A stretch of 64,000 nucleotides of DNA from an uncultured delta proteobacterium (GTDB taxonomy: Bacteria > Desulfobacterota > Binatia > UBA9968). Below the pieces are notes generated by a model. That model ran no database searches. It had not been told where the DNA came from and saw nothing but the letters and a program-made list of their open reading frames with translations. Numbering within the stretch: the first letter of the stretch is position 1; each line of letters opens with the position of its first letter. Location: contig CAVUZH010000019.1 of the NCBI GenBank assembly GCA_963745835.1, forward strand, positions 384,001 to 448,000. The letters are read 5' to 3'. Shown one piece after another: positions 3,026 to 36,480 of the stretch. The position numbers and the translations under genes were made by a program.

Positions 3026-3232
3026 TCACTGGAAGTGGGCTATGACATGGGTCAGAAGATCGCCGCTTATCTGATCGATAACTCTCTCAAGCCGGTGCGT
3101 TGAAGAGGTTGCAACGGCTACGCCGCTGCGCCAGTACGTGATCTGCATCGCCGCGGGATCAGGATGAATAGCTAGACGTACTGAACTCGAGCTATATGGA
3201 GTCCGCCATTTCGAGCCATAGGCAGAGCGCAT
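3026..3232 (-). CDS. Small hypothetical protein (68 aa) or remnant, antisense cargo
   Basis: TAAGGAG Shine-Dalgarno 9 nt upstream of ATG 3232; no recognisable family. Confidence 0.35.
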   Translation of the reverse strand: MRSAYGSKWRTPYSSSSVRLAIHPDPAAMQITYWRSGVAVATSSTHRLERVIDQISGDLLTHVIAHFQ

Positions 3233-3274
3233 ACTCACCCACTCCTTAAGTATGCTAATCAATGCTGCCCGGCC

Positions 3275-3409
3275 GTGTTTCCGCCCAACGTTCTGACTTT
3301 CGCAGATAAAGTTTTGCGCTAGCCGAACGATCTAAAATCAAAATCAAAAATCTAAATCGCTAGGGTCGCGCCGAATGCGCTGGCGCGCACGAACAAGGTG
3401 CTCAGGTAA
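3275..3409 (+). repeat. Double orphan SBP tail with heptamer spacer (empty unit)
   Basis: VFPPNVLTFADKVLR* + ccgaacgatctaaaatcaaaatcaaaaatctaaatcg + PNALARTNKVLR*. Confidence 0.75.
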
Positions 3410-3414
3410 AACCG

Positions 3415-4392
3415 ATGAATGGAAAGCTCGCTTGGCTGATCGTTTTATGCCTCCTCGCATCTATCCAATTGGCGCAGGCACAGCCACGGATCTATTCGGT
3501 AGGACTCCTTTCACTCGGAACCACTGTCACTGCGGAGGTTCAAGGCTTGCGCGACGGTCTGAGGGCAGCCGGATACGTTGAGGGAAAGAATCTGATTTTT
3601 GATGTAGGAGTAGCGAAAACTTATGAGGAACTACGTCCGGTTGCGCAGTCTTTCGTAGAGAAGAATTTCGACGTCATTGTCAGTACCGGTGCATCCGCAC
3701 CGCTCATTGCCAAACAATCGACACAAATCATTCCGATCGTGTTTCTCGGTGGTGCCGACCCTGTTCAAGTAGGACTCGTTAAATCACTGGGACATCCCGG
3801 AGGGAACATCACTGGAATCGCTCGCTACAGGGACACTGAAATCTACGGAAAACGGCTTGAGGTTTTCAAGGAAGCTGTGCCGAATTTGCGAAGAGTCACT
3901 GTGCTTTACAATGCCCGCGGTGAAAATCCGACGCATTTCGCAAGCCTTAAATTGCTCCAAAAAATCGCACCGAGGCTGGGCGTCACGCTCATCGAAAAGC
4001 CGATCAAAACAGTCAGTGAAATGGAAAACGTTATTTCGGATATCTCCAGAGATATCATGGATGGTTTGTTCCCGATATGCGCCACGATGTTCAGGGATTT
4101 GACTAAGTATATGGCTGAGACGGCAAGTCAAAGAAAGGTTGCGTTGTTCGGTTGCAGCCCTCTTGTAGTGACGGATTTCGGGGCTCTGTTGTACTACGGT
4201 GCGGACAATTACCGAATGGGACAACGAGGTGCCTGGTACATTGACCGCCTTCTCAAAGGCGCCAAGCCGCAAGATCTGCCAGTAGAAATTCCGAGTTATT
4301 TCGAAATGATCGTAAATCTAAAAACTGCCAAGCAGCTCGGCCTAACGATTCCGCCCAACGTGCTGGCGCGAGCGGATCGAGTTATTAGATGA
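3415..4392 (+). CDS. ABC_sub_bind SBP (divergent)
   Basis: AQAQ signal site, family motifs, tail. Confidence 0.95.
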   Translation: MNGKLAWLIVLCLLASIQLAQAQPRIYSVGLLSLGTTVTAEVQGLRDGLRAAGYVEGKNLIFDVGVAKTYEELRPVAQSFVEKNFDVIVSTGASAPLIAKQSTQIIPIVFLGGADPVQVGLVKSLGHPGGNITGIARYRDTEIYGKRLEVFKEAVPNLRRVTVLYNARGENPTHFASLKLLQKIAPRLGVTLIEKPIKTVSEMENVISDISRDIMDGLFPICATMFRDLTKYMAETASQRKVALFGCSPLVVTDFGALLYYGADNYRMGQRGAWYIDRLLKGAKPQDLPVEIPSYFEMIVNLKTAKQLGLTIPPNVLARADRVIR

Positions 4393-33531: not shown

Positions 33532-33572
33532 TTTTAGATTTTCGATTCCGACTTTAGATTGAGGAAAAGAGC

Positions 33573-34613
33573 ATGATTGAACGACCTTCGATGCGATTGC
33601 TTGATTCTGTGTCCGACAATCGGAAATCTAAAATCCAAAATCGAAAATTGGTGGAGATTGTTGCCTTCGTTCTTACTTTTGTAATGTGTGGCGTTGTGGC
33701 CCAGGCGCAGCAGCCCACGAAAATTCCCCGCGTAGGAGTTCTTTTCATCGGCTCTCGGAACCAACCCCATTTAGACGCATTCAAACAGGGCCTACGAGAA
33801 CGTGGATATGTGGAACAGAAGAACATCGTCCTTGAGTACCGCTATGCTGAAGGCAATAACGATCGACTGCCCCAACTCGCTGCCGAACTAGTACGCGACA
33901 AAGTCGATATCATAGTCACGACCGCATCGGTTAGCGCCCTCGCGGCGCGGGCAGTGACGAAGACGATACCGATTGTAATGACCAGTGGTAATCCTTTGGA
34001 AAGTGGCCTGGCCACCAGTTTGGCCAAGCCAGGCGGAAACGTCACGGGTCTTACGGTACTCTCGGTCGATTTGAGCGGCAAGCGGGTGGAACTCCTCACC
34101 GAAACATTTCCAAAAACTACGCGTATCGCGGCCCTGCAGAGTCCCCAGGACTTTGAAGCTGGCGCCGGCTACAAGGAAACACAAGAGGCGGCAAAAGCAT
34201 TTTCTCTGCGTTTACATCCCGTAGAAGTCCAATCGGCCAATGATTTTGAGCCTGCATTCGCTCAGATGAACAAGGCTCGTGAAACCGCTCTGCTCGTGAT
34301 CCTGTCGCCGATGATCACTTTTAACTCGCGCCGGATCGTGGAACTGGCGCTTAAGTATCGGTTGCCGGGCATGTACCCTACCAAACAATTTGCTGAGGAA
34401 GGCGGACTCATGTCGTACGGGCCCCTGATCGGTGATTTATACCGTCGCGCCGCCACTTACGTGGATAAAATTCTCAAAGGGGCGAACCCCGGTGAGTTGC
34501 CAGTGGAGCAGCCAACCAAGTTCGAGCTGGTCATCAATCTTCAAACAGCAAAGCAGATTGGTGTGACAATTCCGCCGAGTATGCTGGCGCGGGCAGACCG
34601 GGTGATCAAGTAA
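33573..34613 (+). CDS. ABC_sub_bind SBP (heptamer hairpin leader)
   Basis: GAGGA SD, AQAQQ site, motifs, tail. Confidence 0.95.
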   Translation: MIERPSMRLLDSVSDNRKSKIQNRKLVEIVAFVLTFVMCGVVAQAQQPTKIPRVGVLFIGSRNQPHLDAFKQGLRERGYVEQKNIVLEYRYAEGNNDRLPQLAAELVRDKVDIIVTTASVSALAARAVTKTIPIVMTSGNPLESGLATSLAKPGGNVTGLTVLSVDLSGKRVELLTETFPKTTRIAALQSPQDFEAGAGYKETQEAAKAFSLRLHPVEVQSANDFEPAFAQMNKARETALLVILSPMITFNSRRIVELALKYRLPGMYPTKQFAEEGGLMSYGPLIGDLYRRAATYVDKILKGANPGELPVEQPTKFELVINLQTAKQIGVTIPPSMLARADRVIK

Positions 34614-34672
34614 AGTAGGTGTGAGGTGAAGCGAGATGAAGGCGCTACCGTAAAAACATGAAGGAGGCGTTT

Positions 34673-36295
34673 ATGAAGCTCAACAGACTTTTTCTATTTG
34701 GCATCCTCGTCACACTTCTTTGCCTGCCCGCAGTTATGGCGCAGGACAATACGGGGGAAAAAATCGGCCAGGTTAACTTTCCGGTCACCTGCAGCGCGGC
34801 GGCACAAAAGCAGTTCGATCAGGCTCTCGCCGCCCTACACTCGTTCTGGTACGAGGAAGCGCTCAGAGTGTTTACCGCTGTTGCGGAAACTGACCCCGCT
34901 TGCGCCATGGCCTACTGGGGAATCGCCATGAGCATTTACTATCCTCTCTGGGTGCCGCCGAGTCAGCCGACATTGCAGAAAGGGACTAATGCCATCGAAA
35001 AGGCGAAGTCGATCGGCGCCAAAACCGATCGTGAAGGCGCCTATATTGCGGCGATAGAAGTCTTCTACAAGGACTCGGACAAGCTCGAACACCGAGCCCG
35101 CACTCTCGCGTACGAAAAAGCGATGGAGCAGATCCACCGCCAGTACCCAAACGATAGAGAAGCCGCGATCTTCTACGCGCTGGCGCTCAACGCCACGGCG
35201 CCTCCAACTGACAAGACTTACGCGCAGCAGCGAAAGGCCGGCGAGATTCTTGAAAAGGTCTTTGCGGAGCAGCCGGATCACCCGGGCGTGGCTCATTACA
35301 TCATTCACAGCTATGATAATCCGTCTACGGCGAAACGTGGGCTTCCTGCCGCGCAACGCTACATCAAGATCGCCCCCTCAGTTCCTCACGCGCAGCACAT
35401 GCCTTCTCACATTTTTACGCGGCTCGGTTTTTGGCAAGAATCGATTCAATCAAATCTCGGAGCCGTGGCAGCATCGAAAGAATATGCGGCTAAGGTTCAT
35501 CCCGAAGCAGCATACTATGAGCATCTTCATGCCTTGGATTACCTAGTGTATGCCTACCTGCAAGGAGCCCAGGATCGCGAAGCCAAGCGCGTCGTTGACG
35601 AACTGCAGGCGATTAAAAAAGTCCAGCCGGAAGCGTTTCAGGCAGCTTACGCCTATGCTGCGATTCCGGCACGTTATGCGCTCGAGAGGCGCCGCTGGTC
35701 TGAGGCCGCAGCGTTGAGCGTGCAACCAACCGCCTTTCCCTGGAGCCGTTATCAGTGGGCGGAGGCCGTTACACATTTCGCGCGGGCCATGGGATCTGCA
35801 CGCAGCGGCAATGTTGTTAGCAGTCGAAAGGACATCGAAAAACTCGAGTCGCTCCAAGATGCCTTAGTCAAGGCTAAGGACAGCTACTGGGCTAAGCAGG
35901 TCGACATACAGCGCCGGGTGGCAAGCGCTTGGTACCTACGCGCCGAAAATAAAAATGATGAGGCGCTACAGCTCATGCAGTCCGCGGCGGACCTCGAGGA
36001 CTCGACCGACAAACACCCGGTCACGCCGGCACCGATCCAGCCTGCGCGCGAACTCCTGGGCGAAATGCTTCTTGAGCTCGGCGACCCTGCTCAAGCACTA
36101 AAAGAATTCGAGGTTTCGCACCGAGTGGAACCTAACCGCTTCCGCGGCCTCTACGGCGCCGCGAAGGCGGCTCACGAATCTGGGGACCGCGAAAAAGCGC
36201 GCCATTACTACGCAAAGCTAATTTCCCTCTGTGAACACGCCGATGCGGATCGACCCGAACTCAAAGAGGCGAAGGCATTCTTGTCGGATAAATAA
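34673..36295 (+). CDS. Secreted TPR-repeat protein with His-rich motifs
   Basis: AAGGAGG SD, signal peptide, TPR-like helices, HPGVAHYIIHSYD and PHAQHMPSHIF motifs. Confidence 0.85.
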   Translation: MKLNRLFLFGILVTLLCLPAVMAQDNTGEKIGQVNFPVTCSAAAQKQFDQALAALHSFWYEEALRVFTAVAETDPACAMAYWGIAMSIYYPLWVPPSQPTLQKGTNAIEKAKSIGAKTDREGAYIAAIEVFYKDSDKLEHRARTLAYEKAMEQIHRQYPNDREAAIFYALALNATAPPTDKTYAQQRKAGEILEKVFAEQPDHPGVAHYIIHSYDNPSTAKRGLPAAQRYIKIAPSVPHAQHMPSHIFTRLGFWQESIQSNLGAVAASKEYAAKVHPEAAYYEHLHALDYLVYAYLQGAQDREAKRVVDELQAIKKVQPEAFQAAYAYAAIPARYALERRRWSEAAALSVQPTAFPWSRYQWAEAVTHFARAMGSARSGNVVSSRKDIEKLESLQDALVKAKDSYWAKQVDIQRRVASAWYLRAENKNDEALQLMQSAADLEDSTDKHPVTPAPIQPARELLGEMLLELGDPAQALKEFEVSHRVEPNRFRGLYGAAKAAHESGDREKARHYYAKLISLCEHADADRPELKEAKAFLSDK

Positions 36296-36480
36296 GCCGA
36301 TTTAGTATTTGACGCTCAGGCACGTATACGCATCTTGTACCTCGGGATGGCTTTCTCTCTCTCTTCGACCTGTGATCGGTCCGAAAGTGCGAACCAACTC
36401 AATTTTGCGTGTTGAAAAGCGAATAAGGTGATGATGACGTCCAGCCGTGAACAGCTACCACTTATTAGCAAAGCATCGGA

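Follow-up and report, generated by a model that had tools for sequence, protein, structure and literature searches.

The Bug (TctC) family of Bordetella is a large orphan expansion of substrate-binding-protein (SBP) genes, and expansions of this type hold tens to about 100 paralogs per genome, mostly without adjacent transporter genes; for such families, no account of tail remnants or of units shuffled at a conserved 3' block is known to us. Integrons are built from IntI, attI and attC cassettes. Related work by Koskiniemi and colleagues from 2014 is said to deal with C-terminal displacement and orphan arrays in Rhs, CDI and T6SS effector-immunity loci. In the T6SS and Rhs loci of V. cholerae, anchor-based insertion leaves displaced 3' ends and orphan genes, and homology-facilitated illegitimate recombination is the mechanism proposed for C-terminal displacement at Rhs, CDI and T6SS loci (available part of Kirchberger et al. 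2017, PMC5361080). The tandem paralogs of esaG (S. aureus) and tipC (streptococci) recombine via conserved 5' and 3' blocks (available part of Garrett et al. 2022, PMC9484751).

The window, that is the whole stretch of 64,000 nucleotides analysed here, carries at positions 1-41809 of its plus strand about 40 SBP genes and frameshifted pseudogenes, arrayed in tandem on this one strand, mapped with a family HMM and belonging to PF04392 (ABC_sub_bind; gene 13078-14091, for example, matches with E=6.9e-45 in Pfam). The array starts 3.3 kb left of the window (C19:380701, C19 being the window's contig). Like Bordetella Bug, this is an expansion of tens to about 100 paralogs of one SBP family, mostly with no transporter genes next to them, but of another Pfam family. 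The hosts of such arrays are soil MAGs labelled Binatia or Deltaproteobacteria. G000 denotes the window's own genome (contamination rating 9.3%); G001, G005 and G006 are genomes of the same genus. The right border and one decayed member are:

41841..44243, plus strand: dCache-HAMP-GAF histidine kinase (Pfam), right border of the array; its G006 counterpart is 97-99% identical, but in two pieces, with the break at about residue 332-335
5422-5604 (head) and 5631..5738 (tail, profile 303-333), plus strand: internally deleted SBP pseudogene (HMM map, nhmmer)

We read this array, with a probability of roughly 0.55, as a birth-and-death family of orphan SBP genes in which the 3' end of the gene, the tail, is a homology block for RecA-type shuffling of units and for gene displacement that leaves 3' remnants, and not as an integron. 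The swapping is most likely the work of ordinary homologous recombination, not of an integron-like machine. The process would be of a kind already known from esaG/tipC arrays and from the orphan arrays of Rhs and T6SS loci; the gene family is new.

Foreign genes lie within the array, and a tail remnant follows each of five inserts:

3275-3322 and ~3366-3410, plus strand: site 1, two decayed tandem tail remnants with an AATC/AAAATC repeat between them (translation, sequence)
14178..14890, plus strand: foreign lipoprotein-like zinc metalloprotease, in two overlapping ORFs (14178-14453 and 14432-14890)
~14930-15194, plus strand: site 2, remnant 3' of the metalloprotease (profile 275-329 or, more widely drawn, ~260-329, in two frames; nhmmer E=3.8e-28)
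19525..20153, plus strand: foreign pair of a Phd/YefM-like antitoxin (19525-19770) and a PIN-domain toxin (19767-20153) (Pfam)
20182..20304, minus strand: inverted SBP fragment just 5' of the site 3 remnant (profile 252-292, 31.3 bits)
20330..20450, plus strand: site 3, decayed remnant 3' of the toxin-antitoxin pair (nhmmer hit 20330-20446, E=1.4e-14)
22598..23385, plus strand: head of an SBP pseudogene split by the secreted-protein insert (profile 15-278, family HMM)
23692..24471, minus strand: foreign 259-aa protein with a signal-peptide-like N-terminus, no Pfam family
24879..24996, plus strand: site 4, tail of the split pseudogene, 3' of the secreted-protein gene (profile 296-333; nhmmer hit 24879-24993, E=5.8e-23)
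34658..36295, plus strand: foreign TPR protein (Pfam TPR families); G005 has a TPR gene at the same place
~36400..36437, plus strand: site 5, remnant 3' of the TPR gene, AAGGTGAT...ATGA (compared by eye)

The earlier note had placed a decayed SBP tail behind each of these inserts, and all five are there, the one behind the TPR gene being merely about 40 nt long; behind the secreted protein, where it had drawn the tail at 24809-24996, the part from 24879 on is tail and 24809-24878 is not. At site 1 the first remnant reads AVFPPNVLTFADKVLR and the second RVAPNALARTNKVLR, each followed by a stop, and nhmmer picks up the second only, weakly (E=0.76). Site 3 keeps its last 8 codons intact (ARADRVIK and stop). 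Site 5 ends in ...AATAAGGTGATGATGA, lies below the nhmmer threshold and has a homologous decayed counterpart 3' of the TPR ortholog of a same-genus genome (L047 ~7190-7256). Among the tails compared with each G000 remnant, that of the upstream gene ranks 26/35, 6/31, 5/18, 6/21 and 6/7 in five cases, a sixth case having no upstream tail; since they are not consistently copies of the upstream tail, their origin is heterogeneous. A lone tail at C8:115030-115159 of G000, at the position taken in G006 by the end of an intact SBP gene, speaks for our reading.

The Pfam matches of the metalloprotease (Peptidase_M10, Reprolysin_5, Peptidase_M57) are weak and all under curated cut-offs, the antitoxin matches PF02604 below its curated cut-off (E=2.6e-05), and the toxin matches PF01850. 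Metalloprotease homologs occur in 11 of 60 other family genomes, and of 12 other loci one, the same-genus ortholog, is flanked by a tail remnant and another lies near a full SBP gene; the secreted protein was found in none of the 60. A block shared with G005 at 88.8% (33379-36293) includes the TPR gene.

We propose that foreign genes replace gene bodies: the upstream join would fall at or near an intact tail, and the downstream join would be illegitimate, within the next gene, whose 3' remnant would be left. This would amount to homology-facilitated illegitimate recombination, or 'C-terminal displacement', with no dedicated recombinase. As in the Rhs, CDI and T6SS loci, so far as the available part of that paper describes them, a conserved coding segment would act as homologous anchor and incoming DNA would displace the resident gene without an integrase, so that the resident 3' end and the downstream genes remain in the order intact upstream gene, new insert, 3' remnant. 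There, however, exchange is anchored in the 5' end or core of a single large toxin gene whose tip varies, whereas here the anchor would be the 3' tail of each of many whole genes; complete SBP genes would be displaced, and toxin or immunity logic does not apply. In gaps of 500-6000 nt, with some further cases classed differently, the order intact gene, then tail-only fragment has 9 cases in the named loci, 3 in G000 and 2 in the genus loci; the order head-only fragment, then intact gene has 1, 0 and 0, plus one 5'-partial-then-intact case in the genus set. The right-hand junctions, instead of being distributed over the whole gene, concentrate at profile ~223-316, which simple displacement does not predict.

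Alternatively, the tail may have no special role in recombination, its remnants being the most detectable or slowest-eroding leftovers of random indels in an array that is decaying. Indeed, the secreted-protein gene is a plain insertion that splits one SBP pseudogene at profile 278/296 with both halves kept; genes split into complementary halves also occur in other taxa (L073 4-154/152-333, L115 15-105/107-332), and tail-only fragments outnumber head-only ones by merely 14 to 7 when all are counted in 77 named loci (79 minus two dropped). But head fragments of 80-100 codons, at 70-100 bits, are easily detected, so the asymmetry is no detection artefact, and the intact-then-tail order is far commoner than its mirror image. 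We consider random leftovers unlikely, also in view of three observations given below: the common boundary of short tails, the synonymous conservation of the tail and the edges in the most contiguous genomes.

Foreign inserts are not the only places with tail-only copies. Short copies, about 45 nt long, trail SBP genes or pseudogenes too (14127-14181, 16319-16388, 22490-22546, 27233-27278 and 29412-29460), intact genes without an insert included, and one lies immediately 5' of the metalloprotease. Several belong to mini-modules:

14089..14181, plus strand: mini-module of a stop, CCGAACAATCC...AAAATC, a short tail (last ~14 codons) and GTGA
16297..16388, plus strand: mini-module 3' of pseudogene 15298-16296, n-region repeat and short tail, readable as MDEIPPHVLAGADRVIR and stop
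22460..22546, plus strand: mini-module (sequence)
27233..27278, plus strand: short tail copy 3' of intact gene 26111-27205, its ATGA overlapping the start of ORF 27275-28348
29381..29460, plus strand: mini-module 3' of gene 28385-29380, its short tail fused in frame to ORF 29420-30490

In the first, CCGAACAATCC...AAAATC is coding sequence of a signal-peptide n-region; the second lies inside a block of 91% identity common to the window and G005. 'Empty' mini-modules recur in the C19 array and in that of contig C3, and the short tails share a recurrent left boundary at profile ~319, at the start of ATTCCGCC, which speaks against random leftovers.

Codon choice in the tail had been called stereotyped, and the numbers agree. 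Among 60 intact G000 paralogs, the last 10 conserved degenerate columns show an excess codon homozygosity of 0.200, versus 0.079 elsewhere (Mann-Whitney p=0.0018), and the last 19 columns one of 0.178 versus 0.071 (p=6.5e-5), with 0.065-0.086 in other motifs (SLARPGGNITG 0.076, KRLELLKE 0.065). The same tail codons return in other MAGs (214 intact genes, 76 named loci; 0.197 versus 0.085, p=0.0013), a breadth that also speaks against random leftovers. DNA identity between paralogs is 65-75% in the bodies and 82-90% in the last 45-140 nt; the longest exact identity run falls in the last ~45 codon columns in 903 of 1770 pairs (51%), and 100 of the 145 pairs whose run reaches 20 nt or more have it there. 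In paralogs otherwise 65-75% identical, no other DNA is nearly as well conserved as the last ~16-45 codons, which should therefore be the main place of non-allelic crossover or conversion. A Chi-like role is not indicated, since no 8-mer of the tail is enriched in DNA outside the SBP genes. A weaker second conserved block lies at the signal-peptide cleavage site (AQQ).

The arrays of same-genus genomes are in fact mosaics of one another, as two blocks in the window illustrate:

16134..17381, plus strand: unit common to the window and G005, 91% (block comparison)
40743..40749, plus strand: edge of a 95% synteny block with G006, 29 nt before the stop-codon end of gene 39807-40775

Over 22,913 nt G006 and the window are colinear (94.9%) until identity collapses at this edge, left of which G006 has no match to G000 at 83% or more. 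The unit shared with G005 begins at 16134-16152, at -154 from a stop, and ends at 17379-17381, at a stop, so that the shared block (16145-17381) comprises the previous tail, a spacer and a gene, with tails at both ends. In the G005 ortholog of the array's left end, 3 of 8 SBP genes have orthologs at 88-95% and the other five none above 78%. Of 14 resolved edges against G001, G005 and G006 (C22:240775 was dropped, and the support interval of C19:381654 is wide), seven lie from -48 to +1 of the end of an SBP stop, two at -154 and -171, four in the spacer, leader or signal-peptide region and one at the TPR stop; none falls in profile ~30-280, the central ~250 codons. Breakpoints between MAGs favour the tail, half of them within 50 nt of an SBP stop and none mid-gene, but at no single site, for junctions range from -171 to +112 around the stop codon (~280 nt). 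Ten of the 14 come from fragmented MAG contigs (G001, G005) and could be chimeras assembled at a conserved repeat, and those at the ends of genes might in part result from selection for intact genes, as the account by random leftovers would have it; yet edges between G000 and G006, the two most contiguous genomes, also fall in the last 10 codons.

Synonymous excess, identity runs and edges at or near the tail agree with its being a DNA-level homology or recombination site, as the earlier note had claimed. In our preferred reading, array units would be gained, lost and exchanged by general (RecA-type) homologous recombination. The available part of the esaG/tipC paper describes a close parallel: strings of non-identical tandem paralogs with high-similarity blocks at both gene ends, through which recombination between paralogs explains loss and expansion between strains. 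Unlike those, the family here is a periplasmic SBP; its 3' block, which contains SD and start signals, has site-specific synonymous conservation even between distant MAGs; and its junctions are marked by tail-only remnants and by mini-modules of n-region and tail, with foreign genes in the array.

That note had gone further and called the architecture integron-like, with leader, gene and tail moving as a unit. A dedicated cassette system of this sort, in which a site-specific or HUH-type recombinase encoded elsewhere would recognise the tail, for instance CCGCC...GGCGG, and insert or excise such units at a site inside the coding sequence, appears to us very improbable. The array does resemble an integron in its single orientation, its gene-sized units, the short repeat at each unit boundary and its unrelated cargo, a toxin-antitoxin pair included. 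The discrete short-tail class, with one edge (-48) exactly at its ATTCCGCC start, and the recurring empty mini-modules would also suit cassettes, the tail consensus permits a 7+3 bp hairpin, and at 9 kb from the C3 array there is a Y1 transposase gene, at 3 kb from a small C14 array there are tyrosine recombinase matches. Unlike in an integron, however, no IntI is nearby and the repeat is coding, not a folded attC. Contig C19 has no match to PF00589 or PF01797 (tyrosine recombinase, Y1/HUH), and in the 15 kb to the left of the array, where the note suggested looking for a recombinase, 12 ORFs reach 90 aa, of which the 10 scanned are all ordinary metabolic genes and none a recombinase. The hairpin shows no covariation (72.5% of cells paired versus 72.2% in shuffles; 102 of 500 shuffles reach the covariation score), and 12 tails folded as single strands give z-scores from -2.72 to +1.36. 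The junctions keep to no fixed position; in the 60 other family genomes neither the secreted protein nor the metalloprotease, the two checked, recurs as a cassette, the secreted-protein insert simply splits its SBP gene at profile 278/296, and none of 11 ORFs scanned in inserts of other arrays and of G006 is a mobile-element gene. On these grounds the integron-like reading finds no support. What remains of the original reading is the homology junction and the shuffling of tail-bounded units such as the G005 block, without integron architecture and without foreign genes as recurring cassettes.

The tail may have a second role. At its end stand an SD-like GGTGATC and a stop/start overlap of the form (A/G)TGA (the 16S 3' end reads GGATCACCTCCTT), which suggests translational coupling with the next gene; coupling would give part of the nucleotide conservation and perhaps also underlie the persistence of tail remnants 5' of downstream genes. 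Taken further, tail and leader hairpin might be mainly an RNA-level expression module, for coupling or reinitiation at (A/G)TGA with the SD in the tail and perhaps for mRNA processing, in which case recombination at the tail would be a by-product of conservation and remnants would persist because the downstream gene needs them. We find this doubtful as the main cause. It is favoured by the enrichment of TGA (71 of 97 tails versus 41% genome-wide; 152 of 214 in other MAGs), by overlap starts in frame with the next SBP gene at 30 of 52 junctions (p=2.7e-4; frame open in 26), by the metalloprotease ORF, which begins at the mini-tail's GTGA in G000 and at ATGA in the same layout in G005, by three short tails that form ATG-started mini-ORFs, and by the TPR remnant, which keeps mostly AAGGTGAT..ATGA in both genomes despite a diverged spacer. 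Yet codon bias peaks at codons -15 to -4 (I P P. V L. R A), ahead of the SD-like part, so coupling does not explain the whole bias; GGTGATC is present in only 30 of the 97 tails, in some remnants the stop is TAA or TAG or the end is gone (for example 15190, 16388, 22546), and 14 of 50 orphan tails, in a count from a flawed analysis, have no SBP head within 300 nt downstream. The leader hairpin, which also favours an RNA-level role, pairs (GATTTTN)n just 3' of the stop with (NAAAATC)n, which codes for the Lys-rich n-region, and holds an internal ATG in its loop, as at 7827..7975 (plus strand); further ones lie at 15195-15325, 17380-17500, 24994-25140, 26112-26235 and 33529-33650, and all 6 of 6 leaders show this pairing and fold with z from -1.95 to -3.73.

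About 40 PF04392 substrate-binding protein (SBP) genes and pseudogenes, all on the plus strand, fill positions 1-41809 of the window. Their products, of ~330 aa with a signal peptide, belong to a Pfam family of ABC transporter substrate-binding proteins (the gene at 13078-14091 scores 154 bits against a gathering cut-off of 25.9), with 3lkv, 3lft and 6hni as relatives in the PDB. The array starts 3.3 kb outside the window, at position 380701 of its contig (C19), and is bounded on the right by a dCache/HAMP/GAF histidine kinase (41841-44243) followed by response regulators. The stretch 41841-47347 comprises this kinase and then three response-regulator or sigma-54-activator-like genes; kinase counterparts of 63-99% identity occur in five other genomes (G002, G006, G011, G014 and G023), of which four have SBP matches a few kb away. 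Possibly, then, the orphan SBPs provide input to a sensor instead of a transporter.

The source genome (G000; 7.28 Mb in 25 contigs, completeness 97.1%) holds 76 full-length SBP matches and many frameshifted copies in more arrays, on contigs C3, C22, C24 and C14. These arrays were assumed to belong to the same genome as C19; because contamination of the assembly is 9.33%, its contigs may in part come from another organism. The family is present in all 18 other same-family genomes of a first sample, with dozens of copies in some. This tally includes G012 and G018, as does a tally of 22 of 31 genomes with a match; the loci of these two (L003 and L007) entered no other analysis. All comparison genomes are metagenome-assembled genomes (MAGs), as are the nearest named relatives, which carry the labels Candidatus Binatia, Deltaproteobacteria and Syntrophobacteraceae. 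Literature searches on PF04392 (by title and abstract), on Binatota substrate-binding proteins and on tandem solute-binding-protein paralogs gave no description of the array.

The earlier note had seen a decayed copy of the tail, the conserved last ~16 codons of an SBP gene, behind each foreign insert. All five remnants are present, after a small ORF and after four larger inserts:

14178-14890, metalloprotease, lipoprotein-like, two ORFs
19525-20153, Phd/PIN toxin-antitoxin pair
23692-24471, minus strand, 259-aa secreted protein of no family
34658-36295, TPR protein

The remnant behind the TPR gene is only ~40 nt long and falls below the nhmmer threshold; the TPR gene occupies the same place in the genome G005, and there too a homologous decayed tail follows it. 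The secreted-protein insert splits a single SBP pseudogene, of which both halves are kept (positions 15-278 and 296-333 of the family profile). In contigs from other soil samples the metalloprotease lacks one base at 14306 (public runs X4 and X14) and one at 14374 (X8 and X14); since each of these contigs is without one base, the two-ORF state may be a frameshift absent from some strains.

Tail-only copies also occur without foreign genes and are thus not specific to inserts. A class of short tails of ~45 nt, corresponding to the last 15 codons and beginning at ATTCCGCC, lies 40-90 nt 3' of SBP genes or pseudogenes, with three further occurrences in the C3 array:

14127-14181, short tail copy
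16319-16388, short tail copy
22490-22546, short tail copy
27233-27278, short tail copy
29412-29460, short tail copy

Most short tails are preceded by a conserved spacer, (C/T)CGAACAATCC...AAAATC, which encodes the Lys-rich n-region of the long signal peptides of this family. These units are therefore mini-genes made of an n-region and the last 15 codons, and three of them can be read as ATG-started mini-ORFs. One mini-tail lies immediately 5' of the metalloprotease, whose ORF starts at the GTG of its GTGA (ATGA in the G005 ortholog, at 94% identity). Duplication of the upstream gene's tail was rejected as a general cause of the remnants: as a source, the upstream tail ranked 26 of 35, 6 of 31, 5 of 18, 6 of 21 and 6 of 7 in five G000 cases, and in the sixth there was none to score. 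Among 12 loci elsewhere it came first in six, clearly so in L068 only (0.89 vs 0.70). A decay profile of orphan tails (132 positions, without the stop codon), which gave no gradient, was set aside: the 31 long orphans had 0.76-0.81 consensus identity against 0.80-0.81 for 443 tails classed as intact, a flawed classing that counted short tails near intact genes as intact and took in some contig-end cuts as orphans.

To ask how far the tail is conserved as DNA, we compared, for each conserved degenerate column, the observed codon homozygosity with the expectation from family-wide codon use. The intact set comprised 60 paralogs (profile start at most 16, end at least 331, score above 350), two paralogs with internal stops having been dropped. 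The stereotyped codons on which the earlier note had remarked stand out clearly, with an excess of 0.200 in the last 10 columns against 0.079 elsewhere (p=0.0018); over the last 19 conserved degenerate columns it is 0.178 against 0.071 (p=6.5e-5). The proposed comparison with the conserved motifs SLARPGGNITG (0.076) and KRLELLKE (0.065) put both at background level, unlike the tail. A second site, the AQQ motif at the signal-peptide cleavage site (alignment columns 30-32), is as biased as the tail (0.251), preferring GCG CAG CAG well above family codon usage. Both biases recur outside G000: a set of 214 intact genes, drawn from 76 named loci in other MAGs, shows them too (tail excess 0.197 vs 0.085, p=0.0013), L103 and L108 having been excluded from it as duplicates of genus-set DNA. 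The preferred codons common to G000 and these MAGs are ATT CCG CCG. GTG CTG. CGG GCG GAY. GTG ATC in the tail and GCG CAG CAG at the cleavage site. Since the same codons and the same excess are found in these genes, the bias is old and site-specific, rather than a product of recent duplication here. In the gene at 10035-11030, the tail region (10980-11030) has a 1-nt deletion and, 24 nt on, a 1-nt insertion; its DNA remains consensus-like, but its protein reads IPPTCWRGRIKVIR.

Part of this conservation can be explained by translation. The tail ends in ...AGG GTG ATC AAA TGA, in which GGTGATC is complementary to the 16S rRNA tail (3' end ...GGATCACCTCCTT, also written ...GGATCACCTCCTTTCTAA) and lies ~7 nt 5' of a start codon, ATG or GTG, overlapping with the TGA stop. 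The stop is TGA in 71 of 97 tails; among long ORFs of the whole genome it is TGA in 1210 of 2960 (41%), and among genes of other MAGs in 152 of 214. The overlapping start shares its frame with the next SBP gene at 30 of 52 junctions (expected 1/3, p=2.7e-4), and in 26 this frame is open. The array thus shows the ATGA/GTGA overlap, the Shine-Dalgarno-like sequence within the upstream ORF and the in-frame downstream ORF of stop/start coupling, and from its sequence the tail end looks like classical translational coupling. Coupling would give a selective reason to conserve the very end of the tail, and one to keep a tail 5' of the gene that follows. That the tail is mainly an expression module is nevertheless improbable: GGTGATC is present in only 30 of the 97 tails, and the strongest codon bias lies in codons -15 to -4, where coupling leaves it unexplained. 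Coupling signals thus explain the nucleotide conservation of the tail partly, not the rest.

The earlier note had also taken the tail for a recombination site, and the comparison of breakpoints between MAGs that it proposed supports this. The paralogs are old: at the DNA level their bodies are 65-75% identical, compared with 82-90% over the last 45-140 nt. The longest exact identity run falls within the last ~45 codon columns in 903 of 1770 paralog pairs, and runs of at least 20 nt do so in 100 of 145 pairs; codon columns 20-40 form a second peak. We then placed the edges of DNA blocks shared between genomes by a change-point fit, which resolved 14; the edge at C22:240775 was unresolved and was dropped. 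None of the 14 falls in the central ~250 codons, and seven fall between -48 and +1, counted from the end of the stop codon.

Edges of DNA blocks shared between genomes
40746, C22:245209, C19:383376, 17381, 22460, 1360 and C19:381654, between -48 and +1 of the stop end
16145 and 13920, at -154 and -171
33569, 2990, C22:243284 and C19:382441, in the spacer, leader or signal-peptide region
36294, at the stop of the TPR gene

Two inter-genome edges lie ~50 nt inside the gene, i.e. in the signal-peptide region. Profile positions ~30-280, ~70% of the unit, are without edges, an arrangement with a chance of ~1e-7 for 13 independent edges, although not all of them are independent. Fragmented MAG contigs, in which mis-joining at a conserved repeat is possible, supplied ten of the 14. 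Such mis-joins would fit an account in which the tail has no special role and what we see are leftovers and artefacts; with the codon excess at the tail recurring in other MAGs, we consider that account unlikely.

The arrays were compared with those of same-genus genomes. To the right of the array, the genome G006 is colinear with the window over 22,913 nt at 94.9% identity; this identity collapses at 40743-40749, 29 nt before the stop codon end of the penultimate SBP gene, and left of that point G006 has no match to G000 at 83% or above. The arrays on C22 of G000 and on contig C10 of G006 have a 4.5-kb block in common; one of its edges sits 21 nt 5' of a stop end, and the second could not be resolved. 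In G005, the left-flank contig carries SBP genes 1 and 2 in common with G000 (88%), an unmatched gene, the unit 16145-17381 (91%) and then four genes without a counterpart above 78%. Array gene content is thus mosaic relative to G000 in both G005 and G006. The SBP gene body at 16393-17382 is 95% identical to its G005 counterpart (L043:13563-14549), the left flank of the array being 86-88% identical; this difference hints at a recent transfer of the unit, or at stronger constraint on it.

No tail-consensus 8-mer is over-represented outside SBP genes, which speaks against a Chi-like role (the best reach z=2.4, rank 1108, and z=1.8 among 65,536). Twenty public runs from 11 studies carry part of 13000-20500, and contigs of runs X1, X4, X8 and X14 match 12001-32000 at 92% in short pieces only; apparent joints in run contigs have sides of 20-46 nt, run mostly from tail to tail, and were taken as cross-mapping of the conserved tail. 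Joints of this kind stem from repeats or foreign organisms, and neither they nor the uncovered parts serve as evidence here.

The earlier note had called this architecture integron-like. As to look, the description holds, with a repeat at unit boundaries and cargo genes between; as to mechanism it does not, for want of a recombinase on C19, an attC fold and recurring cassettes. Of 13 PF00589 matches in the genome none is on C19, nor is any match to PF01797. The recombinase that the earlier note would have sought at the left end of the array did not turn up among the 10 of 12 ORFs (at least 90 aa) scanned in the 15-kb left flank, nine of them ordinary metabolic or transport genes and one of no family. 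Twelve tails folded as single-stranded DNA gave z-scores from -2.72 to +1.36 and no structure in common, and the only hairpin in the consensus, CCGCC...GGCGG, is paired in 72.5% against 72.2% in shuffles, with no covariation. Recurrence of cargo was examined for the secreted protein and the metalloprotease. No homolog of the former turned up in 60 other family genomes; the latter has homologs in 11 of 60, and among 12 other metalloprotease loci a tail remnant adjoins the same-genus ortholog, and a full SBP gene lies near one other homolog (in G034). The nearest PF00589 or PF01797 matches are 3 kb from a small array on C14 and 9 kb from the one on C3. We consider a dedicated recombinase system acting at the tail very improbable. 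Toxin-antitoxin cassettes are said to protect large integron arrays from deletion. The Phd/PIN pair, which sits in mid-array, could likewise stabilise an array prone to tail-to-tail deletion.

The pattern of an intact SBP gene, a non-SBP stretch and a tail-only remnant recurs elsewhere in G000, at C3:1410746-1410871, C22:250577-250627 and C24:391681-391811. In G006, a 4.2-kb insert is followed by a tail remnant covering profile 273-333, and other taxa have the same pattern. With gaps of 500-6000 nt, we counted it nine times in the named loci, three times in G000 and twice in the genus loci. Its mirror image, a head-only fragment and then an intact gene, was seen once, along with one case in the genus set of a 5'-partial gene before an intact one. 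Two intact genes flank the gap 18 times in named loci, nine in G000 and two in the genus set, with short or decayed tails hidden in some. The asymmetry between left and right is real, since head fragments are easily detected (70-100 bits per 80-100 codons). The inserts are thus bordered by intact conserved sequence on the 5' side and by the 3' remnant of a displaced gene downstream. At a further locus of G000, the lone tail at C8:115030-115159 corresponds in position to the tail of an SBP gene that is intact in G006; in G000 an opposite-strand Rieske-domain ORF takes the place of the SBP body. Inserts in other arrays and in G006 include a frameshifted multicopper oxidase, a 389-aa protein of no family, small ORFs, and Vps62-like and LamG-like proteins; the ORFs scanned there matched no mobile-element family.

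To explain these results we propose a birth-and-death array, in which units would recombine homologously through conserved end blocks and foreign genes would enter by displacement, leaving behind the 3' end of the resident gene. This is the best-supported account, to which we give a probability of about 0.55. Both steps have parallels. Recombination through conserved blocks is documented for the esaG and tipC immunity gene arrays (PMC9484751). The SBP array resembles these: its tandem paralogs are non-identical and carry short blocks of high DNA similarity, no resolved edge falls in the central ~250 codons, and gene content is mosaic between genomes, as judged against genomes that are mostly fragmented MAGs. 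For T6SS effector-immunity and Rhs loci, PMC5361080 proposes a (C-terminal) displacement via homology-facilitated illegitimate recombination, by which, as in the SBP array, the displaced resident gene leaves its 3' end.

A bolder reading, which we hold to be doubtful, would join these elements. Selection would preserve the nucleotide sequence of the 48-nt 3' coding block, and of the block at the signal-peptide cleavage site, in distant soil lineages because these blocks serve as a portable recombination linker. They would be an equivalent of integron attC sites that lies within coding sequence and needs no recombinase. With it, Binatia-like bacteria could shuffle, lose and gain whole SBP units and capture foreign periplasmic genes with a ready ribosome-binding site and start; the mini-modules would be empty cassettes, and the toxin-antitoxin pair would stabilise the array.

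The birth-and-death account offers a testable picture in which a very large family of genes for sensing or uptake in uncultured soil bacteria turns over by whole-unit swaps at a short conserved coding block. Turnover would be fast, in that genomes 95% identical in the flanks have almost no array in common. An integron-like look, i.e. boundary repeats plus cargo, can arise without integron machinery, which is relevant to annotation pipelines and to claims of new mobile systems. The synonymous conservation of the tail and the stop/start overlap are experimental handles for recombination and coupling.

The leaders, the spacer and start regions before the next SBP gene, have features of their own. 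Over the whole window no Rfam family reaches its gathering score, and the leader hairpin matches none. In this hairpin, the (GATTTTN)n that opens many leaders directly after the stop pairs with the (NAAAATC)n that encodes the Lys-rich n-region of the next signal peptide, and an internal ATG lies in the loop. Fold z-scores range from -1.95 to -3.73 in six of six leaders:

7827-7975, leader hairpin
15195-15325, leader hairpin
17380-17500, leader hairpin
24994-25140, leader hairpin
26112-26235, leader hairpin
33529-33650, leader hairpin

Such repeat runs occur almost solely near SBP genes: of 22 in the genome, 17 are at most 300 nt away from one. Directly 3' of many stops there are also gene-specific tandem repeats of period 7-8 (GGCGTGA, CAGAGAT, GGAGTNNT, GCAAAAG/TGAAAAA, GTCAGNN). 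Such spacers lie at 8960-8995, 11028-11065, 6759-6845, 31488-31530 and 4390-4426, and some are then followed by their own inverse (GGAGT...ACTCC).
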